DNA of 57,401 nt, counting the filler, from Dugesia japonica (lineage: Eukaryota), in assembly GCA_001938525.1 (NCBI GenBank). It is 4 parts of 4 records of this genome, joined end to end, with 100 filler letters (N's around TTAATTAATTAA, not from the genome) between each part and the next. Parts side by side here need not be neighbours in the genome. Positions count along the whole stretch, not along the records: positions 23,435 to 38,599 come from MQRL01648563.1; positions 38,700 to 57,401 come from MQRL01602301.1; 2 more parts are not named here. One strand, 5' to 3'. Positions 25,021-49,499 of this stretch are shown one piece after another (the stretch's first letter is position 1; the number at the start of each line of letters is the position of its first letter). A model generated the notes under the pieces. It did no database searches and had not been told where the DNA came from. It saw nothing but the letters and a program-made list of their open reading frames with translations. Position numbers and translations under genes: made by a program.

Positions 25021-26218
25021 GCTAAATAACCAAAAAAAAAACTTCGTACTCATCATCACATTACCTCTAAGAGAGAATGCATTAAAAATTCAACTGAAAT
25101 TACATTTATCGCAGAAATTATTTCTTTCATTAAACTATAGTAGATATGATAACTGATTTTATATTTTTCTTATTCTACCATTTTATTTATTATGCCAGAA
25201 CTTATTTCTTTCGTTTATTTCGAGATATGCTATTTACTAAAATGGTTTTAGCACTTTAGATTTTTTTCTTTTATAGGATATTTCATTGCTTTCCAATGTT
25301 TAATCGTTTTTCAAAATTACTAACTTTTAATTTCTTCTACCTAAAATTTTTTTATTAATTCGCCCGTTGTTGTTGGATTGGATTTGTTGTACCTATTTAT
25401 TCACATTTCATCTCTTTATTTATTCAATTCCTTTATTCACATTTAACTCTTGTCAGTTAATTTTGTTCATCAATTATATTAATTCATCATTTTATTTTAT
25501 TCCTGTATTATTTTAGATTTTATTTCCTTTTAATTCATATTTCTTTTACAATCAGATTTCATTTCATTTTACTTAGTCATCAATTTAGATTTTATTCATT
25601 TTGTACAATGAAAAATTTTATTTCTTTCATTAAAATTTAATATCCATTTATCTTTTATTCGTCTATTCAATAATGATTTTATATCTTTCGTCCATTTAAT
25701 TTTAATAGCGATTCCTTTTATCTTTAAAAAAATATTTTTTTCATTTATTGTAATAATTTCTTTAATTATTCATCATTTATTATAAGAATTTCTTTAATCA
25801 TTTATCAATTTACTTTAACAGGGATTTATCAATTATTCAACAAGGATCCTATTCTTTTATTTATTTATTCATTTAGTTTAATAGAGATATCGATTATTTA
25901 GTAAGGATTATATTGTTTAAAAAAAATATAGAAATTTTGGGTTTTTAGGATTTTGAAGTTCTAATTTTTCTCTAAATTCTCCAATCTCATTCTCATTTTA
26001 CTGTTTTCATCTTCATATCTAGGGGTAACCTAAAAACCACAAGCATTCTCTTTTCCACGGGTTCAGCTCAACTTCGTGGTATCGAGTCTTACTCATTAGA
26101 TTTCTGAACCCTGACAACAATATCTCTCACATGCTCAGTTAAAATTTGATATCGTACTTTTAATCAAACAAAACCACAAGTCAAAACATGCTATTAATAT
26201 CCATTAATATTTATTTAA

Positions 26219-26572
26219 CTATCTACATCTTCGCCATCCGCCATCCAGATCTACCGCCTGCTCTCTTGTTTCGGTCGATTCTTCTGGCGTTCGGTAATTT
26301 AACCACAATGTTCGCAGAGTGTGGAATATTGTGGCCTCCCGGTCGGCGTAGATCTTAATAACCTCGGCCATAAGGCGGTTGGCCTGCTGAAGAGCCAACT
26401 CCTTCTCCTTTAACTGTGCGAATTTTGACGAGGACCTGTTCAGTTGTCCTTTTAATTGCAGAATTTCATTGCACAAATCGCGCTTCTCATCCTTCCACTT
26501 TTGCTGCGCTGCTACTACATTTCTTTTTAGCATCTTTTCGTCATTGGATTTGTTCACTAAAATTGTAGACAT
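26219..26572 (-). CDS. Uncharacterised 117-aa coiled-coil protein (cassette family, copy 1)
   Basis: Open ATG-initiated, GC-enriched ORF followed by AATAAA (26210-26215). Shares W-x42-A[ED][VI]I[KR]xxx[DE]RE with 37602-37991. Confidence 0.6.
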   Translation of the reverse strand: MSTILVNKSNDEKMLKRNVVAAQQKWKDEKRDLCNEILQLKGQLNRSSSKFAQLKEKELALQQANRLMAEVIKIYADREATIFHTLRTLWLNYRTPEESTETREQAVDLDGGWRRCR

Positions 26573-26859
26573 AATTTAATTGCAATAGTTTTAACTAAGA
26601 TATAGGTACAAAATTAATTAAAAGAAATAACAATCGTAGACTACAATTTCTTACAAAGACAAGAAAAATTGTGTGAAACAAAATTCGTTCCTCAATTTCA
26701 CTTTTACACAAAAATGAAAATAATGATTAAATAAACGCATTTAAACCTAGGACTGCCTCTACAGACACAATTTTTTTAACCACAATGTGACAAAAATATC
26801 ATGTTAAGTAATTTAATAAACAACCCCTTACTTAACAACACTTGTACACATTAATACAT

Positions 26860-27050
26860 TTATTTGATCATTGATTTCACCTTGATGATCACTGGGTCAC
26901 GTACTTCGGTCGTGACCCCAGTGTCATCCATCAGCTGCTCCAAAATCTTTTCTTCGATCTTCTCCATCACGAAGTGGTGTTCGATTATTTGCTGGTTCGC
27001 CGTCGAGAGCTCACGGACAACCGATTGTATTTCCAACTTTTTGTAGTAGT
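26860..27050 (-). CDS. Short uncharacterised helical ORF/exon of the same cassette
   Basis: GC-enriched open frame KKLEIQSVVRELST...; the stop overlaps AATAAA. Confidence 0.35.
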
Positions 27051-27469
27051 TGGGAAAATAAAAATATAAAAATTGAAATTCCAAAAGCTCAAAATAAATT
27101 AAAATATCAATTGTAAATTTTAATGTATATAATACTGTAAATAAAATTGTAAAAATAAATTATGTAAAAATACAAAATCAGTATGAATAATGAAACAAAC
27201 AATTGATTTATGATAAAAGGGTGTATCTAAAAAGAAAAACAGTTTGATAATAAATATAAATATATCATTTAAAATGACGTCTTAACACCACAAATCATCG
27301 TAAATAATGTGAAATTATTTTTGTAGATTAGAAAGTGGTTAAAAACACATTATGAAAACTTTGAATAATTAAATTTAGAAAAATAATTAATTTGAATACA
27401 AAATATTTTACACATGAGATATATAGAGGTTACCAACAATTTTGAGAGAAAATTGAGTTATTTTAAAAT

Positions 27470-27950
27470 TTTAAGGGATTCGATCCCAAACCCTCTGTTG
27501 ATAGCGAAAATTAAAAAGTTGATGTGCGACCAATGGGATTTCGACGTGACCAAATAATTTGATAGGAAATTTGCTTTATGAATTTTATTTGACGAAGTAT
27601 TTTATTGGAGGACTTTTGTAAAAGTCAATATTGAGTATGCTAAGATTTTATTTGTAATATTTTTTTGGTTGAATTTTGAAATTCAATATGTACGTGTGCG
27701 TAAAATATGCTATAAAAATAGTTTCAGTTTTGCATGAAATTGCAGATTTGCCGAAGATTTATGTTAAGATTATTGTGATCATTAATAAAATTTATTCAGT
27801 TGGATCAAATTCAATTAACGTAATTATTATTTATTTGAAGAATTAATTAACAGAGACGCACCTTATTGAACTCANTCAGATATTTAATTATATTCAACTT
27901 GAATAGAGCTCAAGTGTCGTGTTTACCCCGACATAATTGGTGAGCCCGAA
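27470..27950 (+). promoter_or_regulatory. 3' part of a gypsy 5' LTR plus primer-binding site
   Basis: TATAAAA near 27711, AATAAA near 27784, LTR end ...GTTTACCCCGACA at 27933. PBS TGGTGAGCCCGA at 27938 is close to the tRNA-Trp complement TGGTGACCCCGA. Confidence 0.7.
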
Positions 27951-28174
27951 AAGAAGGTGTTAAATTAATTCGAGAAAAGAATTTTGAGGTTTGGAAGCTC
28001 AAAGGTTATGCTAGAAATTTGTTGAAAAGGGAAGCAATCACTTCCTCGAGTTATTTCAACAGTCTGAGCAAAGGGAAACTGTCACTTCCCAGAAATTTAT
28101 TGTAGTAGTTGTAACTACGAATTCAAGNNCCTAGAAACAGAAGGAATCGAATTGTCGGAGAACGACAATATAAT

Positions 28175-28770
28175 TTGAGAAATCGACAAATCAAAACAGA
28201 AGTTAAGATTAATATGTTAAACAATCCAAATGATCCTGGAAAGATAAATGAGAATAATGTTGCCAATTGTCACAAATTGCCAGTTTCTCAATATGGAGGT
28301 GATCCAGTTGAATTTGTGGATTTTATGCGAGATTACTACATGTATAGTAAAGCCTATGGATGGACGGATAAAGTCATGGTTACACGATTACCGTTATATT
28401 TAAAAGGAGCAGCGAGAGATGCTTATTGTCAGTTAGAAGCAGCTCAATTGGATACTTAAGCGCATTGTAAAGATGCTTTAGCAGCAAAACTAGTTAGTGG
28501 TGATGCTGGCTCAATTATGCGAAAAAGTTTTACAATCGAATACAAACTACAGAAGAGTCAGTTAGTGAATTTGCTTTCGAGTTGAGTACATTGGCAGAAA
28601 AAGCATTCGGTTTACGAGAAAATTGGGGAGATCACATTAAAAATATTCTGCAAAATCGAATTCTAACGGGAGTCCACCAAAATATTCGAACCACATTATG
28701 TGTAATGGAATATCAAAATTTTGACGAACTTGTTAAAAAAGCAATGAAAATTGAAATGAATCGTCATCGT
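28175..28770 (+). pseudogene. Ty3/gypsy gag, truncated
   Basis: QYGGDPVEFVDFMRDY...YGWTD...LPLYLKGAARDAY...ESVSEFAFEL..LAEKAF, directly downstream of a PBS. Confidence 0.85.
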
Positions 28771-29138
28771 CACTGTTCCATCTTGTCCAAGTACCCAATT
28801 ATAATTGGGTGGACAAATCCGCGATGTAACCGTTTGAGAAATTAATTTTATTTTCCAAAATCTGCTTGTTCCGTTCAGCCAACTCCCTTTGTTTTATGAT
28901 TATGAGGTCTAATTTTTTAATTAATCTATTTCGTTGAGTGAGATGCCGTAGCAGAGCGCGTTCGTTTTGCCTCTTAATATGTCTCTCTACGAGGAGCTTT
29001 TGGATTAGTCGAGGCTATTTGGTAGTCGTATTCGTGGCACTAAAAATAATGGGATGATGAGTCAACATAACAAAACTAAACAATCAAGATATCGAAGTAG
29101 TTACAGTAAAATTTATTCAAAGCAAAACATTTAAATAC

Positions 29139-29494
29139 TCAATTTCGAGTTTGGGTGGCTTTATCCACCTTTAAAGTCTCTAATGGAATATACTTTCGCA
29201 TTTCAAGTAAGTCGGATACCAGTTTATTCTCACGATCATGGAGGGACCGGATAATGTCCGCAATAGATTCCACCTGGTGTTTACAAATACGCTCTTGGGT
29301 ATGTGAGGCCTCTGCTTCTATTCGGTAACTACGGCATTTATTCTGATACTGCTTTACCTTGGCGTTTGCTGCGGCTATTTTGGCCTCCCATTTTCGTTTT
29401 GCTAATTTGTAAAGATCTCAGGACATATCTTTGTCTTCACTATCCTCTCATATATTTTTCGTAGAAGCAACAGATCGATTCAGGAATGAATGTA
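29139..29494 (-). pseudogene. Coiled-coil cassette ORF, copy 2 (two nonsense mutations)
   Basis: EDSEDKDMS*DLYKLAKRKWEAKIAA...YQNKCRSYRIEAE...IADIIRSLHDRENKLVSDLLEMRK is clearly homologous to 37602-37991. Confidence 0.75.
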
Positions 29495-29754
29495 CTAAAT
29501 AAGATAATGTTTAATTAAATTAGGGGCTACGATGATAAAGTAGACAGGGAAAAAGTTATCTCATTAATAATACATTATGTAGTAATGTCAGATTTACAAG
29601 TTAAACGAAACAAATTATTTACTATAAATATCACCTATGAATAAGACTATGAAAAGGATAAAATGTTTAAGACAGATAGAACAACTCTTTTAACCGATTA
29701 CACGGAAAAACATTTATTAAAATTAACACGGTAAAATGGTGTAATAAGACAAAT

Positions 29755-30094
29755 TCAGTTCGCTGCATTTTCAACATTCTCCGTATTCTCGGCATCTTCA
29801 TTGATTGCCGGTTCCCTTATACCTCAATGCAGGTTGTTGATAAATGTTCTTACTGCAGGTGTTGGGGCATGGGTAATACATGTAAACTGGGTCACCAAGC
29901 TCCGCATTGGACCATTCTAACTTTGATAATTCTGGCGTTCACCGAAATCCTGAATACGCGCAACTACGGCCTCCACTGGTAATAAGTTCGTGCGATTTGC
30001 TAATACGCCAGCTTCCATATTGTAAAGGTTGACATGCCGCCGAAAAATCATTTCCAAGTTCGCCTGTCCCATACTCTTTCCCAGATGACGTTCA
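29755..30094 (-). pseudogene. Second cassette ORF, copy 2
   Basis: IFRRHVNLYNMEAGVLANRTNL is homologous to IFRRLQNPYNRDAGVLVDKSKL in 37110-37304. Confidence 0.6.
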
Positions 30095-30191
30095 CTAAAA
30101 GCATAAACTTAAATATAAATTTATAATTTGGTAGTTGATGAACAAATTTTTCTACAAAAAAAAATTAGCATAGTCAAGTTTTTATCTAAAG

Positions 30192-30392
30192 CTAACAGTT
30201 AGAAAATCGATTTGTCTGATCTAAATCAACATTAGTTCGGAGTGGGAATAACTCTTCAAAGCATCGCAGATCGGTTTTGTCGGGTGACAGAATCCGATCT
30301 GGTGCCAAAATATGACCGATCAGTTGCTTTCGCCGAACCCGTTCCATCTCACTACGAATGAATTTCAAAGTTTGACTTAAGATGTCTGACAT
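30192..30392 (-). CDS. Short uncharacterised ORF within the cassette
   Basis: 66-aa GC-enriched ORF preceded by a TTGTTTTTAG acceptor-like site. Confidence 0.35.
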   Translation of the reverse strand: MSDILSQTLKFIRSEMERVRRKQLIGHILAPDRILSPDKTDLRCFEELFPLRTNVDLDQTNRFSNC

Positions 30393-32905
30393 GTCTTCAA
30401 CCTAAAAACAATTTACAATAGTAAATTAATAATGACAGATCAACCACTACGGGGTACAAGCCCTCATAAAAAGTAAACGGGATTGATCCTCAAATAAATC
30501 ATCAGTGCGATTTTGATGTTAATAGTGAAAATAATGAGAATAATAACAATGTCAATATCAATCTCCCCCCCATGATAATAGTAAACTTAAACATCTTAAT
30601 AACCCCAATGGCAATAATAATTGGTAGAAACCTGTCTAACAGAAGGGCTTTTCACCGGATATAGTGTCTAAATTACAGGTATCAATTTTCCTTGATAAAA
30701 AAATAAAATTGTGATCATATTTCTCACATATTTCTGGTACAAGGTAATGCTCGTGCGATGATTAATAAAAATAAATTAATAATAATATTCATTCATAATG
30801 GTAAGAATGATATAAATGATAATGATGATAATAATTTTAATCGCGCTAATAAAATAAACAAAAGTGTCTAACAAAATCGGTGCTCCGTATCAAACAAAAT
30901 TTTCTACTACTTTATCGAATCCAAACTGTAATTAGCCAGAATGTCATTATGAAAAATCACTCTATCTGCTACTGGAAACGACTCTGAATTGACACAATCT
31001 TAATAATCGCCTGGACACCCATACTCAGTAGTTATTAACAGTAATCGAAATTATTAATTATGAATAGAAAGATAATCATTCCGCACACCGGTAAACTGTC
31101 TACCAGCGAGTCTCGTTTATTGACAAAGAATTGTGGTCTCTTGTTTAAGGAAACAGAAGTATGTGTGAGTAATAACAATTCATAACAGATGAGATTTCTT
31201 AATCAACTAACAAGCGCATATGCGGGTATGCATGCATAGACGAATTATTCATCGTGATAATTTCTGGTCGTTTATCACAATTAACTTTATCAATCATATA
31301 TATTTCTTAATCGTGGAACTAATAATTTTCAGAGTGAATCGTTAAATTTAATCACTATTTGACAAACTCAAAAACTGATAATAATAGCTTGGTATTTAAA
31401 TACAGACGGGATTTATTATACACATCATAATTATTCATTAATGTCTGAATAAAGAAAAATTTAATGAAGTAAGATTTATCATAAAATGTTAATTATTTAT
31501 TTAACTGATATTACATTGATTATAAAAATGACAAACATAAATCAAACTCATATTTACTAAATTAGCTTTAAATTCACTACAACGGTGATGAGTAAATTGA
31601 TTATCTTCTCTGTTTGACCACGGATTAACTTGTCACGTTGTTTTATATTATACAATTAATTTTCCTTTAGTCTTGATAATACTACTGACGTGAATATTTA
31701 CGTTTATAAGTAATAAGAACTGGATAATACGTTTTTTAACGACCTTTTCACTAAAATTTCGGGGGGTTTTTATATGATTTTCTTTGCACCCCAACTCTCT
31801 TCATATTGGGTGCTATTTTTACTCTCTGGTTTGTTGCTTTTGATTGGCACCAGCGTTTAATTTTCTGTTTTTTCTAGAAATTTCAGACTCTTCATTGGTG
31901 CCTATTTTTAGGACACCTGTAACTTTTAACTCTTTGCTTTTTGTTTATTTTCTGGTCACTCATTGGCATATTCTTCCAAACCCTTTCCTGACCCTCTTGG
32001 TGATGGTATGATTTTTCTGTTGCAAAATTCAATTTCCTCGTGGTGCTAGCTTTCCAAATTTTCTTTTTATGACTCTGAGGTTTTCCATAGCAAAGATATC
32101 CTAGAAAAACAGATTTTTATTCAATTACATTTCTTTTTCAGAGTAAGATTAATTAATTTTTCTAGTTAATTAATTATTATCTTTTAGTGTCATTTTCTTA
32201 TTTTCTTAATAATAAATTATAATTCCCTTAATTATAATTATGTGTCGTGGACTTTGTTGATAATAATTGTTTTTTTTCTGGTTATGACAACCTCTCAGAT
32301 CCTCTTTTAATTACTGTTAGTGGTTTGTTTAACAATTACTTTGATTTCGATCTTTTTGTTTTTCTTAATTGACCATTTTTGGAGCCCCTGAATGTGTTGA
32401 CCTCATGATCGGGCGTTTCATCCCAACAATAATAATGATAATAATAATAATAATAATAATACACGTAATGGTTATAATAATTCTGATCCCACTAATAATA
32501 ACAATGATAACCATCAAAACAATAAAGACAATTCTAAATATGATCAAAAGCAAAATTAATAATGATGACAATATTTCATAGTTAATCATATCTTCTAGTC
32601 CTAATAATCAATATATTAATAGATAGATGGGTCGTGATAATAAAAAAAAGAAAACTACAATGTCGATATTAATAATTTGACGATACTAATGATGTCAGCG
32701 TGAAGTAATAGTACTTAAATAATGTTTTAAAGTGGACGATAAGGGCAACTGAATGAAAACTAATATTACGATGTCTATATTCATAATAAGATTCTAAAAA
32801 TTTGTGAATGAGTCTTTAATATACAAAATGTTTAAAATCAATGAAAATAAAATTTTTTTTTAAAAGGTTTTTTTTAATTATAGTCATAATATTAATATAT
32901 TAATA

Positions 32906-32941
<36 letters not shown>

Positions 32942-33802
32942 GTCATATTATTAATAATTTTATTAAGCAAGATAACAAACAAAGTTTATATTTAAATTAT
33001 GATGTTTTCCACCTACGGCCTATTAGGTCTGGTTTCATCACTCCTGGAGCCCAAACGAGTAAAGATTATAAAACTTTCACTTCTTTTATTTTACGAACCC
33101 CTACGGAGTTCTCACAAGATTGCTCTAGTTAAGAAAAATTAAATCATGAGAACGAAACCCTCAACTTGTTCATTTTGTTTTCAGACAATATTAACAATAA
33201 TACGACAAATCCATTATCACATATGAGGCTTTAATATTATATGGTGTAATTCCTAAATCCAATAATTTAAAATAAGATAATAAGGAAAAATTTGATTATA
33301 ACACAAACTATGGAACTGAATTCGTTATGCCAGTAATTAAAATAAACAAAATTGAAGCAATCATAAAAATAAAAAAAATTTTTTTAACTAAGTCGATTAT
33401 AAAAGAAGAACTAAACTATCCACAATAAAATTTCATCCGTAAATTGACTCAAGCTAGATACTTAAAACTACAACGAATATGGTTATCATTGATTCCTAAG
33501 ATTGTGATTAGAGGTTAATTATAAAATAAATTAATTAAAAGTAATGCATTAGTAATTACAAATGCATACAATAAAATAAATTCGCCCGAATTTTATCTCA
33601 TACAAAATTCATTTTCTAATCGCAATGTGTCTTCTCAACTCGTTTGACTTTGGTCTTATTATTCCATCTTGTTTTAACTCCTCATTTACCGTCAAAATCC
33701 TTCGTATATTATCTCGTTAATATAGTCAACTCAAATCGCATATTATCTTTTTAACAACTGTGATAATTATTTTCTTTTCGGCTTCATTTCGTATTTAACA
33801 TA

Positions 33803-34640
33803 TACTGATATGCATAATTTTTGGAAATTTACATATTTTCGTTAAATTTTTTTTACTATTTAGATTTAAAACTTTTTAACTATGTAACATGATATCTGAA
33901 ATAATTAACGTTATACCACAAAATAAAATTTTGTTTAAATCCGAGTTATTACAAAAATGTGAAAAATTAAAATATACCAAAATAATATGTGCATAATTTT
34001 TGGCAACAAGAAATTAAATCCTTCTAAATTTATTTATTAAATAAATTTCCTTGTCTTTTTAATACTTTTTAACACAAGACGACTTCGATATCTCATATAA
34101 AGATTTTTAATAACATGTCTTGAGGCAATATTAATTTGATTGATAACTGTGATCCTTTTTTCTTCCAAATCCAAGCAATTATTAGATTGTAGGTCATTAT
34201 ATATGTCGTTTTATATTTAAGTCAGGGCTCCTCTCTGGTCATTGAATGACTTTAGTATTTGAATCTGTCATAAATTTTGATACCTTCAAATTTTTGTGTA
34301 CTCTGCAATTATCTTCTTGGTAAAAGAAATCGTCTCCATAATTTAGTTTTATTATTGGCACAATCATTTCAGACAACAGTTTCATATATCCGTCTGATTT
34401 AAATGTACCTTTGATAATTCTGAATGCAAACCATTTGGCATACACATAATGCCACCCCCTTTGGATTGTCGTTTATTTCTGATGCAAATCTCTGATTTCA
34501 GTTTATATGTACGCCGATCATCTGGTCCGTCTAAACTGAAACGCTTTTCGTCTGAAAATATAGTTTTTGACCAATCAAGATTTTCGGTTATTCAATGCCT
34601 CACAATTTTAAGTCTTTTCTTTATGCTTGGGATTTAAAAT
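33803..34640 (-). mobile_element. Tc1/mariner transposon remnant
   Basis: WSKTIFSDEKRFSLDGPD, GGGIM, FYQEDNCRVH and PERSPDLNI. The repeated TGCATAATTTTTGG (~33811, ~33989) resembles IR/DR ends. Confidence 0.85.
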
Positions 34641-34779
34641 TATTTGATGTTTGGCTCTTTTATATTTGTAACCAACCCTAGCTATATATCTCTGTACTGT
34701 ACTTTTCGAAACATTTGGATTTTCCAAATTTTATATGTAATTCCAATGTCTGGGCCAGATAGTAATATTATTAAATACT

Positions 34780-34780
<1 letters not shown>

Positions 34781-34847
<67 letters not shown>

Positions 34848-34897
34848 NNNNNNNNNNNNNNNNNNNNNNNNNNNNNNNNNNNNNNNNNNNNNNNNNN

Positions 34898-34958
<61 letters not shown>
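34781..34958. repeat. (AAT)n microsatellite
   Basis: Direct reading. Confidence 0.95.
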
Positions 34959-34963
<5 letters not shown>

Positions 34964-36855
34964 TATATTAAACATAATGAAATCTCCAATTATTAATAGT
35001 GTCGGGGTGAAACACCGGCCAATAAAGAAAAAACAGACAGGGGCCCGAAATCATAATCAAAGTGAAGAAATAAAACCACGAGACTCCAAATAATGGTTAA
35101 TCAATATCAATTTTAATTTAAAAAATACTTACAAATAATTAAATAAGGAAAAATAAGAGGAACCGAAGAAATATGGGAAAAATATTAAGTAAAAATAATA
35201 AGAGATATTAATAATATAACAGATATTCAATCATAATCAAAACATATGAAATATAATTAGATCAATTTAATATCGAAAAAATAAATGGAAAGGGAAAACA
35301 TTAATTAATTAATCTGAAAAAGAAAAATTAATTATAATGATAATCTGTGAAAGGGGAATATATTCCCTCAAAATAATCGGAAAACGTCGAGGAAAAAAAA
35401 TCGAGAAGCCGTCAGCCAGAGAAATTCAATTTTGTTGAACAAAAAGCGGTACCATCATCATAGAGGTCGGAAAAAGGTTAAGAAGATTGGGCCAACAAGG
35501 AGGCAAAAAAAGACAAAGAATAAAAAATCACGAGATGTCAAAAAATAGGCACAAATAAAAGATAAAGGAAAATGCTGAAAAGTTTGAAAATCAGACAAAG
35601 GGCCAATAAGAAAGCTTAGAGAATCTTAAAATAAGGACCCAATACGAAGGAAGTTGGGGTGTTTAAAGAACGCTATAAAACTCTCAGATTATAGTCAAAA
35701 GAGAACACAATACACTCTTGCTTCAAAAAGAAATCTTACAAGCCAGTTATAAAAGCTTAGCCATTAAACTAAATCACGAGAATCTGTTGTGGAAAGCGTA
35801 GAAAATCACTTACTCGAGTTATGATTTGTCCTCGTTGCAGCAATTTTCAATCAAGCAAAATTTTATTTATAATTTATTAGCTGTGTAATCCTTTAGTCGT
35901 AAATACATTATATCTAAAGCTGATTGTTTTCCTTTTGTAATTAGAATAATTTATTGTTATCACTAATTGATGATACAGATTACAAATGCCACGACTAATA
36001 TCCTGTTAGTTGAATCTCAGTTCAATTACTATGACCAGAATCGATAGTATCAATCCACATTCATTGTCATCATATCGTTTTAGCAGGTGTATTTCAGTTG
36101 CTTCATTTATGATGGGTCACCCCACACACCTACTACTGAATACCAAACTATATACATCATCTTGTCATTTTTTATGTAATAACTAACTCGCCTGTTAACT
36201 TGACTCATTAACATATTCAGAGATGGAAAACACTTATCGGAGATAATTTCCCACAAGCAATTAACTGCTTTGCACATTACATTTTGATACCCACTATTCA
36301 CTGAATTAATGACGACTATAACTGATTGTAGATTTGAGTTTTCGGCAGCTAATTCCGGGGAATTTAGAGAATAAACAAAGGAAATCCTACTGATAATTAA
36401 CACAAACCAGGTTTCAATATCTGTTAGAAGATTATGATTAGTCATTATCCCATATATCTCTCGCGCTCCTATTCTTACCGGCTATTAATGATGACACTAC
36501 CGACATTATTGTAATGACAATAATAATTGAGATTGTAACGAGTATCGTTATCAAATTCTTTGATTCATTAACCGTCGTTTTAATTTCACTAATTTTGTGA
36601 TTCATAATATTATTTCTCAGGATAATACTAACAGCTAATATTGGTGCATTTGTCATCATAATTATCGGAATTATTGGGATTGCTAATAGCATTAATAATT
36701 TTGATCATGGATTGTTATTGTTATCAGTATGGCTTTATTAGGAAATATAATTAATAGGGTTGTTATTATTGCCAATTAATAGTAGTCATTTTCACTAACA
36801 TGTAAAATTAGTATTGTGATAATTATTATCAGTATGTTGCCGTTATTATTTATGA

Positions 36856-36856
<1 letters not shown>

Positions 36857-36920
<64 letters not shown>

Positions 36921-36970
36921 NNNNNNNNNNNNNNNNNNNNNNNNNNNNNNNNNNNNNNNNNNNNNNNNNN

Positions 36971-37032
<62 letters not shown>

Positions 37033-37043
37033 TTATTATTAAT
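36857..37043. repeat. (ATT)n microsatellite
   Basis: Direct reading. Confidence 0.95.
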
Positions 37044-37109
37044 TGAGTCATGTTTTAATTTCTGATTAATTTATAATATACCATCGTTTACTCTCTACTT
37101 TTCATTAAA

Positions 37110-37304
37110 GTGACGGAATTCCGATGCCGACTCGTGTTGGATAGAGCCACTAGCCGTACAATATTCCGCCGACTACAAAATCCCTACAACCGGGATGCAG
37201 GGGTGTTGGTGGATAAGTCAAAACTTCCCTCATCGGAGACCGTTTTCCAACGAAGTCTCGACATCGCGGAATGTTTGTTTTACAAACCAAACCCCCGAAC
37301 CTAA
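37110..37304 (+). CDS. Second cassette ORF/exon, copy 3
   Basis: Homologous to 29755-30094; begins at a pyrimidine tract-AG. Confidence 0.5.
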   Translation: MTEFRCRLVLDRATSRTIFRRLQNPYNRDAGVLVDKSKLPSSETVFQRSLDIAECLFYKPNPRT

Positions 37305-37601
37305 TTTCTCCCCGGCCTTCTCACCTAACTGGGAGAATTATTTAGGGGATCATTTGTGATTTTTGTCATCAATGTTCGATGTAATAAGTTTTCATTAAAT
37401 TCTGGAGTTACTTCATTAACTATTAATCTAAGTTTGTCGAAAGTTTCCTATTTAAAAATATCTAATACTCTTACTTTTTTTTATTCTAATTAATAACACT
37501 TCCCATTGAGAAGTATTTTCATTCATGATTTAATAATCGATTTATTATTCTTGCCCGTATTCAAGTAATGAATTAATTTTCGTTATGATTAACTCGTTCT
37601 A

Positions 37602-37991
37602 GTGAATTCATCCCGCAACCGACCAGTTGGTCCCAATAAGAAAGTACGAGACGATAGTGAAGATCTCGAAATGACCTGGGAGGTTTACCACTTGGCAAAA
37701 CGTAGATGGGAGGCAGATATCGCAGCCGAACGTGTCAAATTTAAACGTTATAAGAACCGCTGCCGTAAATATAGACTGGAAGCGGAGACTTCCGTCACGC
37801 TGGAGCGAGCATGGAAAATGCAGCTCAAAGCCTTTGCAGACATCATCCGCCTCCTGCACGAGAGAGAAAGTAAGCTTGTAGCTGATATCCTAGAAATGCG
37901 CAATCAGATTCCTGTAAAAAACAACTTGAGATCGCTAACCGCACAAATAAGCAGCTGTCAAAGTAAATTTCTTAAAACAATACATCGCTGA
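37602..37991 (+). CDS. Coiled-coil cassette ORF, copy 3
   Basis: Open 129-codon frame homologous to 29139-29494 and 26219-26572; AATAAA at 38098-38103. Confidence 0.65.
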   Translation: MNSSRNRPVGPNKKVRDDSEDLEMTWEVYHLAKRRWEADIAAERVKFKRYKNRCRKYRLEAETSVTLERAWKMQLKAFADIIRLLHERESKLVADILEMRNQIPVKNNLRSLTAQISSCQSKFLKTIHR

Positions 37992-38599
37992 CCTGACCAC
38001 ACGTCTAAAGTTGGAAACTTGATGATGAGGCCGTGTTCGACTTCACGAACGACGCGCCCGCTCAGTGTTTAGATCCTGATGCATTTGATGTTTTGTGAAT
38101 AAATATTCTTTGTGCATTACTTGTCTCCGTCGTAATAATCATGAAGTTAGGAGAATTGTGAACCGGAAACAAAGGGGTGCGAGCATGTACTCCAAATATG
38201 CATTGGGAATTAACGGCTCTATTCCAAAGACTTGACTAGGGACGATAGGTCCACTGAGGGCTGATTTTTCCCCAGCCATGATTTTTCTAACACTCACTGA
38301 GATGGAACCCCAACAATAATAATAACATATTATTAAAGTTCAAATTTTATATTTTTAAAGTTCAAATTTTATTCTTTTAAAGTTCAAAATATTACCTGAA
38401 CTTTATAACTAATTAATCACAAATATGTCATTATTGGATTTTCATTATGAACAAATAATTTTATTATTGGCAAAGTTCAACATTTGAACTTTGTTAATAT
38501 TTAAAGTAATTTATTTATCATTATTCTTATCATTATTATTAAACTTAATTTTAAGAATGACCAATTATGAATTATTTTATTATTTCATACATAATTTTT

Positions 38600-38699
38600 N
38601 NNNNNNNNNNNNNNNNNNNNNNNNNNNNNNNNNNNNNNNNNNNTTAATTAATTAANNNNNNNNNNNNNNNNNNNNNNNNNNNNNNNNNNNNNNNNNNNN
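38600..38699. other. Artificial scaffold linker
   Basis: N44-TTAATTAATTAA-N44. Confidence 0.95.
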
Positions 38700-39310: not shown

Positions 39311-39469
39311 ATAAGTTGTTTGAATATTCAGAGTGCTTGGCAGAAGATCAAAAAATCAAAGAAAAGCAGATAATTATTAAAAGCCGGAATTTATTAACTT
39401 TTTGTGAAATAAATATTTTATATGATAACGGACTCTTTACTGAATGAGCACGTTTGCTCTGATTCTAAT

Positions 39470-40253
39470 ATGGTGACAACGATTAATACCGTCTTATGTC
39501 TGATATCTAAAGAAGACACGATGACATAGAAAATTTTATATGCAAGTGTGAAATGTATTTCGGCTTCAAAGGAATTAACAATATAAAAGATCAATAGCGG
39601 TTGAAAAGGTGTTTGATAGAAGAGGAATTAGTTGGGAAGTATTTTGAAACATTGAAAAAAACAGAAGAATTCCAAAATCGAATTTGCCTAGCAATTGGAA
39701 AGCAAAGAAGCATGATATGTAGTTTCAAAGAATTATAGATTTCAAATGAAATCATGAATATGTGGAAATATATATTGCCAAAGTGGAAGAACTGGTAAAT
39801 AACTTATTTTCAAATAAAACTTTTACACAGGAAAACATGGTGGCAAAGATGCTGATTCACTCTTTNNNNNNNNNNNNNNNNNNNNNNNNNNNNNNNNNNN
39901 NNNNNNNNNNNNNNNGATGACATAGAAAATTTTATATGCAAGTGTGAAATGTATTTCGGCTTCAAAGGAATTAACAATATAAAAGATCAGTAGCGGTTGA
40001 AAAGGTGTTTGATAGAAGAGGAATTAGTTGGGAAGTATGTTGAAACATTGAAAAAAACAGAAGAATTCCAAAATCGACTTTGTCTAGCAATTGGAAAGCA
40101 AAGAAGCATGATATGTAGTTTCAAAGAATTATAGATTTCAAATGAAATCATGAAGATGTGGAAACATATATTGCCAAAGTAGAAGACCTGGTAAATAACT
40201 TATTTTCAAATAAAACTTTTACACAGGAAAACATGGTGGCAAAGATGCTGATT
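39470..40253 (+). mobile_element. Gypsy PBS plus gag N-terminal remnant, duplicated across a gap
   Basis: TGGTGACAAC at ~39471, then DDIENFICKCEMYF. 39520-39866 is nearly identical to 39916-40253. Confidence 0.5.
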
Positions 40254-41533
40254 NNNNNNNNNNNNNNNNNNNNNNNNNNNTCTGTTTCTAATAAATCCAT
40301 TCATTTTTTGTTAATCAATTTGTAGAATTTAACATAGGTAAAGAATTTTTAGGCCCAATTCTAATATATATTGTTTATTGTATTCGTGTATTTTTATTGC
40401 ATGAGTAAGTCATTTTAAATTATTTTAAAGTAGCATTATCGTTTCTAGAACTAAGATGTTTTCATAGGTGAAACAGCTTCTAAAGTATTTTCGAGGTTAT
40501 TGTTAAGAATTTATGAAATTATTCACATTTATTTAATTAGAATGGGATTTATGAATTTTTTGTTGATGTATTTAATAATTAAAAGCTGTTCAGACATTTG
40601 ACAAAAAGTTAAAATTTTTATTTATTTTAAATTTAATCTTACAAAACAGCTTAATTATTTTATATGGCTTTGTGTTGTTAAATCGTTGCAATATTCTATT
40701 TNNNNNNNNNNNNNNNNNNNNNNNNNNNNNNNNNNNNNNNNNNNNNNNNNNNNNNNNNNNNNNNNNNNNNNNNNNNNNNNNNNNNNNNNNNNNNNNCTAA
40801 CCAACTCAAATTCCTGATTCGATTTATAATAAGAGGGTGTAGTCCATATTTCATTGCTAACAGTTGCGATATAACAAAAATTGATCAATGTGATCTTCCT
40901 AAAAAATTCAAAGAGAATCTACAAGCAAAAATAGACGATAGAAAGCTCGTTCTATTAGATAGTGTTAAGAAACTATATGGAGAAGACAAAATAATGCCTA
41001 CCGGGTTTAACGGTAAAATGAAAAGTTGCAATTATAATGCATGCAATAAGCTTAATTTATATAAAAATGGGATGGAAAATTTCGAAACATGAATTTTAAT
41101 TGCTTATCAATAAAACTTGTCTTATTTAAGATTTTTTTTTCTAATTTAGTATGTAAATGTTTTAGTAGAGTTTTAAGTTTTTAATGACGTTCAGTTTGTA
41201 ACAAACATTCACTAATAGGTTGCTGTCATAGGTGAAGATGGGTTTTTAACATTTTGATTTGTGGAAATCTTGTGTATGCATATGTGTGTTGATTATGTAA
41301 TGGTGACACTATGTTTGTGTGATTATAATGTAATGATTATGTAACAGTAATTATTGTATCAATTGACGAATGTTTTTTGTTTAAATGAGATGAAATTAAT
41401 TATTTTTTGTTTAAATTANNNNNNNNNNNNNNNNNNNNNAAACTAAATTTCTCTCGAGAAATTTTAACATTATCTACTCCTATGCTGACATTAATAATAA
41501 AATTTTACATTAAGTTTTTGTTTAAATTAGATT

Positions 41534-44500
41534 TTATATAAATGTCGATATTAAATAATAAAATGATTAACAAGTTTCATAAAATAGCAATATTAAAAAT
41601 ATCGGAATCATTTTAATATTTTGAATATTCGATCATTTGAATTTCGATATATTTAAATATTATTATAATTTAAATATATCACATTCCTCCTTTTGCTTTA
41701 TCGGTATTGAGGATTTGGACTCCTTCTAATTCTTTCTGGATAACGTTTTTATAATTATTTATAATAAATATAAAATATCCTAACAAGCCATTTATCATCA
41801 GTTTTAATTTCACCTCTCCATCGATATTTATTATATTTAGCTGCTGTAACTTCATTATTCACTTCTTCTTTTTTTTACATTGACATAAATATTCATAATA
41901 TTTATTTTTAATTGTTCTACCTATTTATCAGAATTCNNNNNNNNNNNNNNNNNNNNNNNNNNNNNNNNNNNNNNNNNNNNNNNNNNNNNNCCCCCCAAAT
42001 ACTATTTCAATCGTTTCATGTGGGTAATGTGGAGAGGAAACTGTTTTCACGATTCTGAATTGCTTGCAATATTTCTGAAATGTATTTGAACTAAAATGTC
42101 TACCCCAATACGAGTGAATTCGACTAAATATTCCAAACTTGGATATCTAATATGTTTAAAAAGCTTTACATATTTCTTCAGTTGTTATTGTTCGCAATTG
42201 AATTAAACATATAAACTTTGAAAAATAATCCACATTTCCAGGAATATATTTATAATCATATTGCGTTGATTTAAATAGTCCTGTAATATCTATTGAAATA
42301 TTTTGAAATTGTTCTTTTCTGATATATTCTGTAATTATGCTTTAATTCTTCCGTTGATATATTTATGTACATTACACTGTTTACAATTTGATAGTTGTTT
42401 TCTTATGTTTTTGTCTATACATGACCAATAATACTCATTTTTGATAACTCCTGTTGTTTTCTCTACTCCCGAATGCCCCAATAACTTACGATATTTCCAA
42501 ATGACAACTTCTCGTTTATGTCTTTACACAATAAGAAGATATTTTTCATCCTTTTCTAAATATGACAAATCACCTCGTATTCGCAGTTCTTTCTTTTTCT
42601 TTCAATACGATTGTATTTCCTTATTTATCTTTACGTCATGAAGTGTTTTCTCGTCTATTTTTAGAGCCTATAGTATTATTTGTATATTTAAATCTTTTAT
42701 TTGTTTTCATTTGTCTTTCTAGTATATTTTATTTACAACTTTTTTCTGAGCGTATACTTTGTTCCTCATCTTTGTCTGTTGTTTTGAATATTTTAACGTT
42801 TCTTTTTCTTTTGGGATCTTGGTGTTTTACTAAACACTGCTCGCAATCTGTTAATCGTGAAAGTGCGTCAGCATTAATATGTTCATGACCCTTTCTAAAT
42901 TCTACGATCATATCAAAGATTTCCAATTCAGTTTTCAATATGCAGTATTGTAACGTATTTAGGCTATCCCAATTAAGCATCCATTTTAATGCTTGATGAT
43001 CTGTTCGTACTACAAATTGTGATCCCATTAAATAGTGCTTAAACATAAGGACATACACATATATTGTCAGAAGCTCTTTTCTTGTGATGCAGTTTTGTCT
43101 CTGACTTTTTGTTAGTGTCATCAATGCATAGTATAATACTCGTTCTTCGCCATCTTGTACTTGAGACAGTACAGCGTCAATTGCGTTTTGAGAAGCATAT
43201 GTATTCAAGATATATTTTCCATCATTTGTTGGCAAAGCTAGTACTGGTGGTTCTGCCAACCTTTAACTTAGCTGGTAAAAATATTCTTTATTTTCATCTG
43301 TCCACTGAAATTTGTTTTCTTTATTTAGCATCAAACTAAGAGCTTCTGATAAATTTGCATGTTTTTTATGGATTGCCTATAATAATTATAAAAACACTAA
43401 AAATGTTTGAAGTTCTTTTTGACATTGAGGAATCTCCCATTTTTGAATTTCCATTATCTTATCAGAATCTGTTGCGATTCAATTTTTAGTTATTATATGT
43501 CCGAGATATTGTATTTTTTACTGTAAAAATTTAATTTTATTTGGCACTAATTTAAGTCCACCTTCTCTTATTCTGTTTAATATTTGATCCAGTCTTTCAT
43601 TGTGCTCATCTACCGTTTTGCCGAATATTAAAACATTGTTTAAATATATTATGCACGTTTTTCAACTTTCATTTTGCAATACAAAATCCCTAAGCCACTG
43701 AAATGTAGCTGGTGCTGAGCATAATTCAAACAGCATTCTGGTAAATTTGTTGTGGTCAAACTTTGTGCTGAATGCTGTTTTTTCCTGATATTTTTTAACT
43801 ATCGGCACTTAGGGATATCCACTCAAAAGGTCTTGAGTTGAAAACGAGTTTGCTCTAGCAATACTTTCAAATATTTATGATAGTATTGGGAATATTGATC
43901 AGTTTGTTTTAGCATTCAGTGCTCTGTAGTCAACACACATACGGTTATCACAGTTTTTCCTTTTCAGCAAAACAATTGGAAGGTTTCATGGAGAAGTACT
44001 TGATTTTACAATATCAACATCTACCAAATTTTTTAACATATATTCTACTTTTTCTTCCAGTCCTTTTGGTATTCTTCGTGGCTTGAAAGCAATTCGTCTG
44101 CTATCGGATATTTTTATTTTATGTTCACTCATATCAGTTTTGCCCACATCCATATTATATCGACTAAATACATCTTTATTCCTTTCAAGGATCGCTAATG
44201 TTTTGATCACATCTTAGTAATTTTTGCAACTTCCATATCATTCTTAATTTTCTGCAGTATATTGTCTGTAATTTCTATATATCTTTTTTGTTTCTCAGAG
44301 AACAATTGTCAGAGTAATACCTCTTCAAACACTTCTTCATTTTTATTTAAATCTTCTGCATATTTGAGTGTAATTCCAGTTTGTAGAGTCTTACATCCTT
44401 CTTCTAACATATATAAATTTACCTACTTGTATCCATTACTATCGATTGTAATTCTATCTGTTACTAAATGTTTCTTTATTCTTATTCATTCCATTATCAT

Positions 44501-46351
44501 TCCTCTAATAAAATATGCACCAATTTCACTTAAATATACGTTTTAAGATACTGCAATTCTATAACATTGATTATCATTATAAATATTATGAGTCTCTGCT
44601 TTTCTGAATCCCATATTACAACTAATTAACACAATCAATGTTAGTTTTATTGACTTAGGTAGAACTGTTTTTGGTAAAAAAAGAATCTTAACATTCTGTG
44701 TTATTTTTCCATCATTAGCTGCATGCGCCATTATTTCGTATTTCTTCCCGCTATTTAATCCAATACACAGATGTAGAAATATATTTGGCATAATATCAAA
44801 CAAGAGTGCTGTCATTTCAGGTCCAGTTGACCTATTTAATTGTAACTACCCCAAACATTCTTCTGTTGTACCATTGGCGCATGTTACTTTTGTCAAAGGT
44901 TTTAACATTCTTACAGCAGAGTTCTTTTTACAGATACGCTTGTTTAATTCCTGGCTTATAACATTCAAATCAGCGCCAGTGTCAAACATAGTTTTCACTG
45001 GTATCCCTGCAACTTGGCATAGAACAATTAGTTTATTTCTTGCTTTTACAGAGATTGACACTAATATTAGTGTTGGCTCATATTAATTAAGTGTTTGTCT
45101 TGGCCGTGCTCTATTTTCTTCGTTAAAGTTTATATACTTATTTCCGAGTGACGGTTTAAACGTTTTAATTAATTCAGTAGATGTTTATATGTCCCAAAGT
45201 TGGTTTATTTTTACTTATCGTATTCCCTTGATCGCTATAATCTTCTTTTACTGGTTACTCATTGATTACTGGTTCTGTTTACTTTTTTTCTTCATGATAG
45301 TATCTTAAATTGCTTATTTTTTTACAGTTTCTTATAAGATGGTTGCCCTCACACCTGAAACATTTTTTGAGATTGCAGTCTCTAGCTATATGGCTTTTTT
45401 TACCACATGTAAAATATTTTCTTGTTTTTTATCTACCCACGGTTATCCATTATTGTGTTTTTTCAGAACTTTGTGCATTATTATTCCTATTTTTATTAAA
45501 CAATTTTGTGTGCACAAGATTTGCAACTGAGTCTCCTTAGTTCAGCAATTTCATTCTTTAGCTTTTTTATTTCAATTCTTTATAGTTTTATTCTCTTGGC
45601 GTAAATTAAATAATATATTTTCATTCGTTTCGTAGTAATCTGTCATCTTTTCATCTTTTATACTTTCTACTGTCTTTTCCAATGATTTCGGTTCGAATAT
45701 TTTTAGTGCATTTGCAAATTTTCTATTTCCTAAGCCATTAATAAATGCTTTTATCATGATTTCCTCTTTTTTCAGATAAAACGCTGCTCTTCAAACGAAT
45801 GCGCATAGCAAAATTTGTTATTTTTTCTCCTCAATACTGCATTAATTCAAGTATCGGTATTGCTTAGTTAATGTTTGATGTTTTAACATCCGGTAAATTG
45901 ATAAAACGTTTTTCTAAAAAATCGATATCTACTTTNNNNNNNNNNNNNNNNNNNNNNNNNNNNNNNNNNNNNNNNNNNNNNNNNNNNAAAATATTTACTA
46001 CATATAGTAATTCTCTCTTCTACGGTAATGCTACAAGCATCAAATATATTTATAAATTCTTTGATGTTTTTTAGGTGTTCTTGAGTACTGACTGAGCTTT
46101 TATTATCCTTTCTGAACTTGAACAACTTAGCTTCGTTTCTTATAAATATAAATTTCTGCAAGAAAAGTTTCTGCTCATTTGATGCTATGTTATATAAATG
46201 TAGATACTAAATAATAAGATGATTAACAAATTAAACTTATATTTCATAAAATACCAATATCAAAACAAATAGAATTCTTTTTAATATTTTGAATATTCAA
46301 TAATTTGAATTACGATATATTTAAATATTATTATAATTTAAATATATCACA
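41534..46351 (-). mobile_element. Near full-length decayed Ty3/gypsy retrotransposon
   Basis: LTR pair (~41534-41683 and ~46190-46351, starting TGTGATATA on the minus strand) and PPT 41684-41694. Gag has two zinc knuckles (~45330-45420). Protease FDTGA, RT CVDYRALN, RNase H 42729-43259, integrase ~41950-42520. Confidence 0.92.
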
Positions 46352-47899
46352 TTACACCTAAAAAACGTCAAAGAATTTATAAATTTATTCGATGCTTGTA
46401 GCAATACCGCAAAAGAGAGAATTACTATATTTAGTATATATTTTTAAATTAAAAGTTTTTTCTAAATTTCTTCATAGGAAATCAATGGAAAAGCTTTTTT
46501 GTTTAAATTAACCAAATGTTGAAATTTTTAGATAGTTAAGCTAGGTTTCCTTGAGTGGCTTAAATATTAAATGTTCCAGGGTTCAAACTATGAGATATAT
46601 TTTATGAGAGAGTTTACTGTTTTCAATTCCATGCATATACATCAATAAATTATTAAATTCATCAATAAAGAAAAAGNNNNNNNNNNNNNNNNNNNNNNNN
46701 NNAAAGAACTTTTACAAAAATTATTACTTTTAAAGAAAATCATTACCAAAAATTATTACCATTTAATTAAACATAACCGTTTAATAAAATTATAAATAAA
46801 GTCATATTTATTAAGTAAAATCAATAAATAAGTCATAGTCATTAATAAAATAAATCAATAAAATTAATTTAATCTTGTAAATATATTCATCATATATTAA
46901 ATTAAAACCGTTGAGTTAAATTAGATAATGTTATGTTAAGTTCTAATCATTACAATAAAAATTATAATGATAACTAAATTAACAATCTAAATAAAATTAT
47001 TACAATAAAAATTGTTTTGAAATTATAATCATGTTGATTTAATTATAATTGAACTTATAAGAAAATTATTTATTTTAAAATCAATAAACTATAAAATAAA
47101 TCTTATGAAATCATTAAAATAAAATAAATAACATAAAATTAAATTGTTAAATTATAAAATAATTTTAAAAAAAGTACAAAAGTTACTATTAATTAAATTA
47201 AAATTGCTACAAACATTATTATCATAAAATAAATTATTATTTAAAATCAATAGCAAGAAACAAACTTGTTACTAAAAATTTAACTTATAAAAAATAAAAT
47301 CTTACTTGTTTTCATAAAATCATTTTTCATATAAATTCCATTAGTCATATTATTAATCCATTTGTTATATTTAAAATTTCAACAGATATAATATTCAAAT
47401 TACCAGGCGTNNNNNNNNNNNNNNNNNNNNNNNNNNNNNNNNNNNNNNNNNNNNNNNNNNNNNNNNNNNNNNNNNNNNNNNNNNNNNNNNNNNNNNNNNN
47501 NNNNNNNNNNNNNNNNNNNNNNNNNNNNNNNNNNNNNNNNNNNNNNNNNTAAATAAATTAGGAACTAAAATAAACACTTACTTTTCATTTATAATTTTAA
47601 AACTTTTCATTAACCATGTTATTAGACTTCGAGGTTTTTGATTTTCTTGTATCTCTAACTGTTTATTCTCTAACGCTGATTAATTTCTGAATCTTTTATC
47701 TGGCGGTAGATACCCGAAGTCGGCATAAATTTGATGAACACCTCCTGTGATGAGATCATCTACCACGTAGTTCATGTGAGATTTTGCGGTATCCCGTTTT
47801 TGTAGAAATTTTATGCTCCAATTTAATTAACTTCTTTCACAGTAATTATAAGTCAATACTAAACAGAAGAAATCTTTATTACTATACATTTATTAAACA

Positions 47900-48228
47900 C
47901 AATCAAGGAGACCCGAAAATCGTCTACACAGTGATTATACATTCTTCATTGACATTGCGCTTTACCCCGTACTCATTTCAGAGTGTTTTCACATTTGCGA
48001 GGACTGTGACTTGATCTGCATATGATTTTATAATTTCCACGAACATCTGGTGGTTTACCATTGACTCACACTAAAACGTTCTTGTAAGGTTGACATATTT
48101 TTCTTGGTGGCATTGATCGTCTCTTTAATTTATATCGCGTCTTTTCGTAATTTATTGATTTCAGCTTTATTTGATTGTTGTTCCTTTAACAGTTAAGTGA
48201 GGTCTAGCTTACTAATTACTGATGTCAT
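47900..48228 (-). pseudogene. Coiled-coil cassette ORF, copy 4 (decayed)
   Basis: MTSVISK...MFVEII(K)SYADQ..VLANVKTL*NEY, read across frameshifts, resembles MSTILVNK...LMAEVIKIYADRE.TIFHTLRTLWLNY. AATAAA at 47889-47894. Confidence 0.55.
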
Positions 48229-49499
48229 GCTAAATTTGAATGTTGTAAATTTGAAATTACATTTTTATTGTGGTTCATAATATCGAAGTTTTAATCTCAG
48301 TATTTTATATTATTGTTTTAACAAAATTAATTTTGATTATAGTTTATTACTTGATTAAAGAGACTCAAAATTAGAACTCATGTACTATTAAATATATTTA
48401 CAATATTACACAAGTTCGATTTATACTGATGTCTCTTCCATTTCCTCCAACGATGACGTGAGTATCGGCATCACTCGTTTGATACCCGCATCCAGTCTAC
48501 GACCCGCTTGATTATACATCAATAGTTCCGATTCTATTATGGTTCCGCGCTCCGCGATAGTGGGTGGCTTTTGCTGGTGATTCAAAACAAAATACAACAG
48601 ATCCGCTAGAGCTACATTTTAATTTTCTCAGTCGCGTTCCTATTGTAATAGTTGTTCTTGCAGCTGTGCCACATGATCTCGCTATTTCAATATCTCTTTT
48701 TTCTGGTCTCGTATCTACATCTAGCGTAAGTGGAGTTTATCTGCAGTGATTAATCAGGGATCCCTACCTGTTCCGTACTATGACTATGAGTCGTATAATA
48801 TTGCCATATGATTAAAAGGTCTTGTTGTGAAGGTCCAGCCATATATCGACTTCACAGCATCGTTAAATGTTAATTGATTTGCAATTTGTAAGCTATTTGC
48901 AGGTAAAATTACACTATTCAATCAATTCTATATTAATGCGGTTATTTAAAATTTCTCGTTTTTATTAAATTAAACATTATTCTATAAACTCTACTGAAGC
49001 CAAGAAGTGAGAACCTGTGGTGAATGCTTCATGGCTTATTACATTTGGGGGTTGAAACTTATTTCGGTTTATTTCTTCATTTTCAAATCTTTTATGAATT
49101 TGAGTCGCATTAAAGAACTTCATGTCCGTAAAAAATGTCTTTTTACAAATTTAAATCTTAAAACTTTCATTTTATTTCATAAAATTTAATTTTACGATTG
49201 ATCTGTGTTTTAAANNNNNNNNNNNNNNNNNNNNNNNNNNNNNNNNNNNNNNNNNNNNNNNNNNNNNNNNNNNNNNNNNNNNNNNNNNNNNNNNNNNNNN
49301 NNNNNNNNNNNNNNNNNNNNNNNNNNNNNNNNNNNNNNNNNNNNNNNNNNNNNNNNNNNNNNNNNNNNNNNNNNNNNNNNNNNNNNNNNNNNNNNNNNNN
49401 NNNNNNNNNNNNNNNNNNNNNNNNNNNNNNNNNNNNNNNNNNNNNNNNNNNNNNNNNNNNNNNNNNNNNNNNNNNNNNNNNNNNNNNNNNNNNNNNNNN

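Follow-up and report, generated by a model that had tools for sequence, protein, structure and literature searches.

Antisense genes have been described in several long terminal repeat (LTR) retroelements. According to the available parts of PMC7264820 and PMC11963269, antisense additional open reading frames (ORFs), termed aORF-3R, lie between pol and the 3′ LTR of maize Grande, rice RIRE2, Silene Retand, bean PvRetro13 and the fungal element Boty (brtn); some have SMC-like domains and antisense promoters of their own, and their function is unknown. The same partial sources describe antisense genes with a promoter in the LTR in human T-cell leukaemia virus 1 (HTLV-1 HBZ) and HTLV-2 (APH-2). 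For planarians, the portion of PMC6431247 available to us describes Burro, a giant gypsy element with long LTRs, an internal region of up to 25 kb and a total length above 30 kb. Its extras are domains of a sense polyprotein of 4,900-5,100 amino acids, or a sense upstream ORF, and the giant ORF1 holds Smc, MATH, BIR, BCL2, env and pol domains; that portion describes no antisense ORF inside the LTR. Here we analyse 57,401 nucleotides (nt) of Dugesia japonica DNA (assembly GCA_001938525.1), hereafter the window, in which small ORFs appear to lie antisense inside LTRs of gypsy type.

The initial annotation of the window proposed a single family of four small coiled-coil genes. All four ORFs are present where it had put them (copies 1 to 4, Table 1), but by sequence comparison they fall into two proven pairs, 2/3 and 1/4. 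As had been noted, copies 2 and 3 are close to each other, with 55% identity over 107 amino acids without gaps and 65% DNA identity over 313-339 nt, and copy 2 carries two in-frame stops. Copies 1 and 4 align over 72 columns with a score that no shuffle reached, whether plain (0/5000) or heptad-preserving (0/5000); in all comparisons copy 4 was translated through, with X at its frame break. Between the pairs, copy 4 matches copies 2 and 3 within chance (1209/5000 and 1315/5000 shuffles), and copy 1 was matched as well in 779 of 2000 plain shuffles against copy 2 and 54 of 2000 against copy 3. The W-x42-A spacing shared by copies 1 and 3 is real and recurs in copy 2. Nonetheless the link between the pairs is not significant with heptad-preserving shuffles of copies 1 and 3 (278/5000), with profiles of 1+4 against 2+3 (25/150) or in an ungapped test anchored on the W (72/400). 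The single four-copy family is thus not upheld, and one family uniting both pairs is possible on these alignments.

We found that copies 2 and 3 differ in excess at third codon positions. Their ratio of nonsynonymous to synonymous substitution (dN/dS) is 0.17, far from the value of ~1 that the initial annotation had named as speaking against it, and the differences at codon positions 1/2/3 are 31/18/62 (p value = 9e-7). When all six frames are compared, both the ratio and the number of stops are lowest in the frame of the antisense ORF, and the ratio is 0.30 in the sense frame with common third positions. The ORF pair upstream of copies 2 and 3 has the same bias (17/18/34, p value = 0.004), and copies 1 and 4 differ at 33/21/44 positions. 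These substitution patterns show purifying selection on copies 2 and 3 and their upstream neighbour as proteins.

Judging by where the termini stand, the ORF blocks appear to be enclosed in LTRs that measure from 1.9 to at least 3.6 kb, and every block is antisense to its LTR. We regard this architecture as likely. The motif TGTYGGGRT, picked after the ends had been seen, occurs five times in the window (24383, 27933, 32428, 35000 and 38315) compared to 0.67 expected and was found as often in 0 of 100 shuffles. It stands at both ends of LTR3, at the 3′ ends of LTR1 and LTR2 and at one more end (24383). As in Ty3/gypsy elements, these ends have TG...CA with short inverted termini (LTR3 at both ends, LTR1 and LTR2 at their 3′ ends), and the LTR1 start departs from that pattern at the second base. 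LTR3 reads as a solo LTR because the motif is found at both ends and its 4-nt flanks match at three of four positions. The four termini without primer site (24383, 32428, 35000 and 38315) all adjoin ATA/TAT-rich sequence, which suggests a target preference for (AAT)n-like sites.

Behind LTR1 the order expected of a Ty3/gypsy element follows. The initial annotation had placed copy 1 antisense upstream of an LTR end, primer-binding site (PBS) and gag, and all three are present. The primer site begins 4 nt past the LTR end and was compared with a listed transfer RNA (tRNA)-Trp PBS, not with the host's own tRNA; the window holds no tRNA genes. The gag begins ~200 nt past the primer site and aligns with residues 2-226 of P0002, one of the gag relatives P0002-P0007. 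P0002 has PF03732 (Retrotrans_gag) and three PF00098 matches (CCHC knuckles); the window gag is cut ahead of the knuckles, which are known from this relative. In viral contigs no match was found for gag, copies 2+3 or copy 1, nor for gag in prokaryote genomes.

Copies 2 and 3 had been reported to read away from a related terminus, and those termini are indeed homologous: starting at their 3′ termini (32428 and 35000), LTR2 and LTR3 align collinearly over a non-coding block of ~400 nt and then three ORFs. In copy 3, the last ~24 codons are an out-of-frame fusion onto a remnant of the next ORF following a deletion, since LTR2 retains ~250 nt more at that place. LTR1 and LTR2 come from different elements, because they have no detectable similarity, and LTR2 abuts the truncated gag of another element. 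The earlier remark that copies 1 and 3 have no DNA similarity visible by eye is borne out: neither DNA nor tblastx comparison links LTR1 to LTR2, and LTR1 and LTR3 share one AT-rich tblastx scrap. The copies in the window are decaying remnants of several subfamilies.

Reads were placed on 25900-32425 only; copies 3 and 4 are outside that range. Of 24 public runs listed, 20 contain part of the copy 1 region, and 9 studies are represented. Run X22 gave 824 reads, nine of them at 99% identity or more, and run X21 gave 27. Behind 27933, the flanks of X22 RNA reads diverge into unlike sequences (43 reads, agreement 0.53). A further 70 X22 reads match only the last 34 nt of LTR1 (27900-27933) and upstream run into one other sequence (agreement 0.94). 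This group is an expressed sister family with the same terminus as LTR1.

Table 1. Features of the ORF-bearing LTRs and their surroundings (positions in the window)
Feature	Position	Strand	Description
Copy 1	26219..26572	-	intact 117-aa ORF (117 open codons); AATAAA 4 nt past stop; predicted long helix and acidic tail
Copy 2	29139..29498	-	two in-frame stops; 55% identical to copy 3
Copy 3	37603..37991	+	open, without ATG at start; homologous part to ~37919, remainder out-of-frame fusion
Copy 4	47900..48228	-	broken, several stops, frame break near 48070; homologous to copy 1
LTR1	26018..27933	+	1.9 kb, 5′ LTR of element 1; start inferred, 10/14 inverted match at AT-to-GC boundary
Second GC-rich ORF block, LTR1	26860..27039	-	59 codons, without early ATG; stop overlaps AATAAA
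Primer-binding-site-like 12-mer	27938..27949	+	one mismatch to tRNA-Trp PBS in supplementary file 1 of PMC13524379 (source available in part)
Broken gag (capsid part)	28130..28761	+	64-72% identical over two frames to P0002; cut at LTR2 junction
LTR2	28765..32428	+	at least 3.66 kb, 5′-truncated; 3′ end carries terminal motif, without primer site behind
Downstream coiled-coil-like ORF block, LTR2	28766..29040	-	broken; end homologous to 37960-38019
Upstream ORF block, LTR2	29756..30094	-	frame breaks; homologous to 37111-37304, third-position excess
Further ORF block, LTR2	30192..30401	-	69 codons; no counterpart found
Non-coding block, LTR2	31768..32161	-	candidate antisense promoter: four CCAAT, GGGGTG, TATAAAA on ORF strand
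LTR3	35000..38315	-	3.3 kb, apparent solo LTR; terminal motif at both ends
Non-coding block, LTR3	35296..35680	+	candidate antisense promoter: three CCAAY, GGGGTG, TATAAAA
Upstream ORF block, LTR3	37111..37304	+	without in-frame ATG
Frame upstream of copy 4	48421..48921	-	166 codons, many stops
Further block beside copy 4	47680-47826		ORF block
Candidate fifth LTR of same type	23436-24383	- (motif at 24383)	broken, moderately GC-rich frames on opposite strand

Within each LTR, AT-rich spacers separate 2-4 blocks with 40-50% GC. On the ORF strand, 7 of 10 block ends have an AATAAA no more than 40 nt away, compared to 22% of AT-rich positions; these ends were hand-picked and are not independent, two are approximate, and one duplicate row for copy 1 was removed. 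The non-coding blocks of LTR2 and LTR3 are 62% identical over 399 columns and share one order of CCAAT-type boxes, GGGGTG and TATAAAA. Judged by these boxes, they have the layout of a candidate promoter aimed at the ORFs. Cross-comparison of the other ORF blocks of LTR1, LTR2/3, the presumed LTR around copy 4 (LTR4) and the 23436-24383 candidate gave nothing significant; there was one 13-residue match (41/3000) among many tests. The candidate fifth LTR is borderline against the second block of LTR1 (156/3000) and not significant against the four copies.

Copy 4 shows no terminus: it lies between two N gaps, in which its presumed LTR has both of its ends. The initial annotation had tied this copy to a gypsy pol, a tie that proves to be positional only: the pol at 49500-52990 has a purine tract of its own at its end (52988), beyond which the sequence is unlike anything else in the window. 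This pol is probably another element. The window holds three gypsy pol remnants (near 21.7-23.2, 42-45 and 49.5-53 kb), the first with 122-bp repeats of its own, and none is tied to the ORF-bearing LTRs.

The proteins themselves resemble nothing that we searched. A match to a known host or transposon protein would have spoken against the initial proposal, and none was found in protein, Pfam, PHROGs or PDB searches. Copies 1 and 3 have no homologue among 5.8 billion proteins (sizes of ~63-205 aa covered), a profile of copies 2+3 has no match among 1.84 billion representatives, and an exact look-up of copy 1 also found no match. Pfam gave sub-threshold coiled-coil matches only, PHROGs gave none for 10 blocks, and the best E value among PDB sequences was 0.09. 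AlphaFold2 predicts a single long helix each (pLDDT, its predicted local distance difference test score, 93 for copy 3 with a two-sequence alignment and 76 for copy 1 as a single sequence), and Foldseek of the copy 1 model against viral models returned 0 matches. Atlas results for the ORFs are below recognition level; the nearest atlas cluster with a family is bZIP_2 (22% share, score 0.85), a weak lead. A bZIP regulator of the HBZ kind was rejected for lack of a bZIP match in Pfam, despite a basic stretch in copy 3 (nine K/R in 15 residues, then a heptad region). L001, the sole metagenome match, falls in the wrong frame of a GC-rich phage-like gene, and L002 is a chance motif match.

Taken together, the earlier idea of a gypsy lineage with an antisense gene array in a multi-kb LTR or 5′ region stands and can be sharpened to a location inside the LTR, while the four-copy family, the pol link of copy 4 and any specific tie to Burro are not supported. 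Our preferred explanation, to which we give a probability of about 0.6, is that the two pairs are selected small genes, likely antisense inside gypsy-type LTRs and likely accessory regulators. If the arrays lie in U3, the established replication scheme implies that reverse transcription would copy them into both LTRs. The array would then be doubled with each insertion and would persist in solo LTRs such as LTR3. The CCAAT/TATA block near the 3′ part of the LTR could drive transcription backward, with a separate AATAAA closing each ORF; being antisense, these signals would leave the genomic RNA at full length. A shift of the plus-strand priming site to a place upstream of a 3′ antisense region, of the plant or fungal type, may have brought the array into the LTR. 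By analogy with HBZ, the helical products might form oligomers in the nucleus, either among themselves or with coiled-coil or zipper proteins of the host, tuning element transcription or blunting silencing, a role that we consider doubtful. Still more speculative, and improbable in our view, is that the LTR works as a modular antisense operon whose polycistronic or alternatively ended RNA, spliced at AGs and cut at AATAAAs, yields several coiled-coil regulators, with solo LTRs forming a dispersed, expressible multigene family that acts in trans on element or host silencing.

Several observations weigh against the LTR location or the regulator role. We saw no element in the window that is complete with pol and both LTRs. 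The LTR1 start at 26018 pairs with its end at just 10 of 14 positions, and the runner-up within 8 kb upstream reaches 9 of 14. The flanks of LTR3 match at three positions only, in AT-rich sequence. X22 RNA is thin over the ORFs, with ~1.5-3 reads per direction (copy 1 and part of copy 2) and no reads over 29388-29823; these reads come nearly all from other copies and in both mate directions, so that the strand is indistinguishable. No library gave any functional clue, nor a bZIP match. Finally, the summed contig depth in run X1, which is no copy number, is 880-1200 over the copy 1 ORF, resembling gag (1300-1900) and far below the 8,000-31,000 over 26990-28079, the 3′ part of the LTR. This depth pattern is what an internal region would give. 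Depth over the LTR1 spacer and second block is 120-250. On the supporting side, the contigs come from many diverged copies; one of 264 nt over copy 2, for example, has 37 differences and 0 gaps.

Among the alternatives, the best surviving concerns splicing, which would be compatible with an LTR location. The blocks could be exons of one spliced antisense gene, or a leader could be cis- or trans-spliced to alternative last exons. Seven hand-picked blocks start after a T-rich tract and AG, and five of the seven pass a filter that is passed by 5.6% of 557 AGs. In the alignment of copies 2 and 3 this AG coincides, the codons from the AG to the first Met in this pair have a weak third-position excess (12/23, p value = 0.048), and two blocks are without an early ATG. 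Flatworms also have spliced-leader trans-splicing and operons, according to the part of PMC8629364 available. On the other side, most blocks end in a stop and an AATAAA, the blocks of copies 1 and 4 open with an ATG, and splice phases are not uniform. Of 76 joints 15 were shown, and no raw read of X21 or X22 supports any of these 15; depth was low, and ~6% and 25% of the two runs had been read. We hold exon structure to be a tentative possibility.

A less likely reading puts the arrays downstream of pol, in the internal region ahead of a shorter 3′ LTR of ~1 kb, with the order array, LTR, primer site and gag produced by a tandem element or a collapsed short-read assembly. The X1 depth favours such a location, since the array is about as deep as gag and the 3′ part of the LTR ~10-25 times deeper; so do the many N gaps in the window, the weak match at the LTR1 start and the arrangement described in the available part of PMC7264820. 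Nonetheless, the terminal motif closes LTR3 beyond the array with near-matching AT-rich flanks, and no purine tract followed by TG in the element sense was found within LTR1-3, which leaves no polypurine tract between array and LTR end in 3 of 3 LTRs. No related pol lies upstream of any array; the one at 21700-23200 belongs with its own short repeats. The depth at 26068-26075, beside the inferred LTR1 start, is 27,000 and thus equals that of the 3′ part, which fits abundant short LTRs without the array or with more diverged arrays.

A host gene family, or pieces of Polinton-like viruses, mixed with gypsy debris by chance is very improbable. Polinton-like remnants do occur in the window, and for copy 1 the atlas gives unrelated host coiled-coil clusters at 0.92-0.94, but such matches are low in recognition value and their families disagree. 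One terminal motif bounds all of the blocks, each of which is antisense to its LTR, the collinearity of LTR2 and LTR3 extends up to the terminus, and the proteins have no sequence match in either large protein set. Least probable of all is that the ORFs serve only as GC-rich LTR modules or antisense-RNA sources without protein function: three of the four copies are broken or rearranged and RNA support is thin, but the strong third-position excess and the dN/dS in the antisense frame over gap-free codons largely refute it.

Decayed mobile elements fill the window, which has ~25% GC and many N gaps. At 1-2756 lies a remnant of Polinton/adintovirus type, with double jelly-roll-like and phospholipase A2-like Pfam matches below cut-off and, by eye, integrase-like and ATPase-like frames. 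A pair of decayed DNA polymerase B frames, related to each other and lying on opposite strands (11300-12340 and 17350-18100; tblastx 36-41%, DNA_pol_B_2 E value 0.008), is likely further Polinton debris. The region 4677-5466 is likely a host class I methyltransferase gene (PF13847 above cut-off) with a candidate ~41-nt intron near 5096-5138, and 9684-10121 is a reverse transcriptase fragment (RVT_1 above cut-off). At 21426-23335, the 122-bp direct repeats (89% identical) flank an RNase H-integrase fragment; this small gypsy element is a copy of a short-LTR family with an internal deletion. A 338-nt repeat (39520-39857 and 39916-40253, 98% identical), one on each side of an N gap, is probably an assembly overlap. 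Two homologous cysteine-rich small ORFs, 40682-41092 (+) and 55835-56146 (-), have 31-36% identity, no Pfam match and a terminal C-x-N-x-x-x-C-N motif, which we take to recall Ly6/uPAR proteins.

LTRs are usually regarded as non-coding and solo LTRs as dead ends. If our explanation is true, genes would outlast the recombination by which an element is usually disarmed, and would escape annotation pipelines. As a host with many RNA data sets is concerned, the window would also provide a concrete example in which the role of antisense accessory ORFs of retrotransposons can be tested. We found no antisense ORFs inside gypsy LTRs in the literature searched, which excluded Grohme et al. 2018 and Repbase, either of which may record them; a single match by wording concerned ORFs that lie between LTRs, and none appear in the available parts of PMC8532177, PMC12801592, PMC3601003, PMC5408684, PMC11410931, PMC13524379, PMC8629364, PMC6673714 and bioRxiv 10.64898/2025.12.11.693146.

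The ORFs of the window thus belong to a known kind, the antisense accessory ORFs of gypsy-type elements, with arrays that probably lie inside the LTR as the unusual feature. Like aORF-3R, they are antisense to gag, conserved among copies, coiled-coil-like and without clear homologues, and have a candidate antisense promoter. Unlike aORF-3R, they apparently lie inside the LTR, in arrays of 2-4 short blocks that persist in a solo LTR, and have no sequence match to them, with no Transposase_28 in Pfam scans and one atlas lead at 0.83 only. A position between pol and the 3′ LTR was not found, a difference of moderate weight given the opposing X1 depth. With Burro they share an AT-rich host, decayed gypsy copies, long LTRs, accessory ORFs and a gag with three CCHC knuckles (in the relative P0002); none of the Burro accessory domains was seen among the window ORFs, and the internal region of the LTR-bearing elements is missing from the window. 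As in HBZ and APH-2, a candidate antisense promoter lies in the LTR and the product may, by analogy, be a small nuclear helical regulator, with a basic stretch ahead of the heptads in copy 3; in contrast, the window ORFs give no bZIP profile match and form an array, whereas HBZ is a single gene whose ORF lies mostly outside the LTR. Coding sequence inside U3 that is duplicated into both LTRs is known from sag of mouse mammary tumour virus and from lentiviral nef, but those are single sense ORFs of vertebrate retroviruses, while the window appears to hold antisense arrays inside gypsy-type LTRs.

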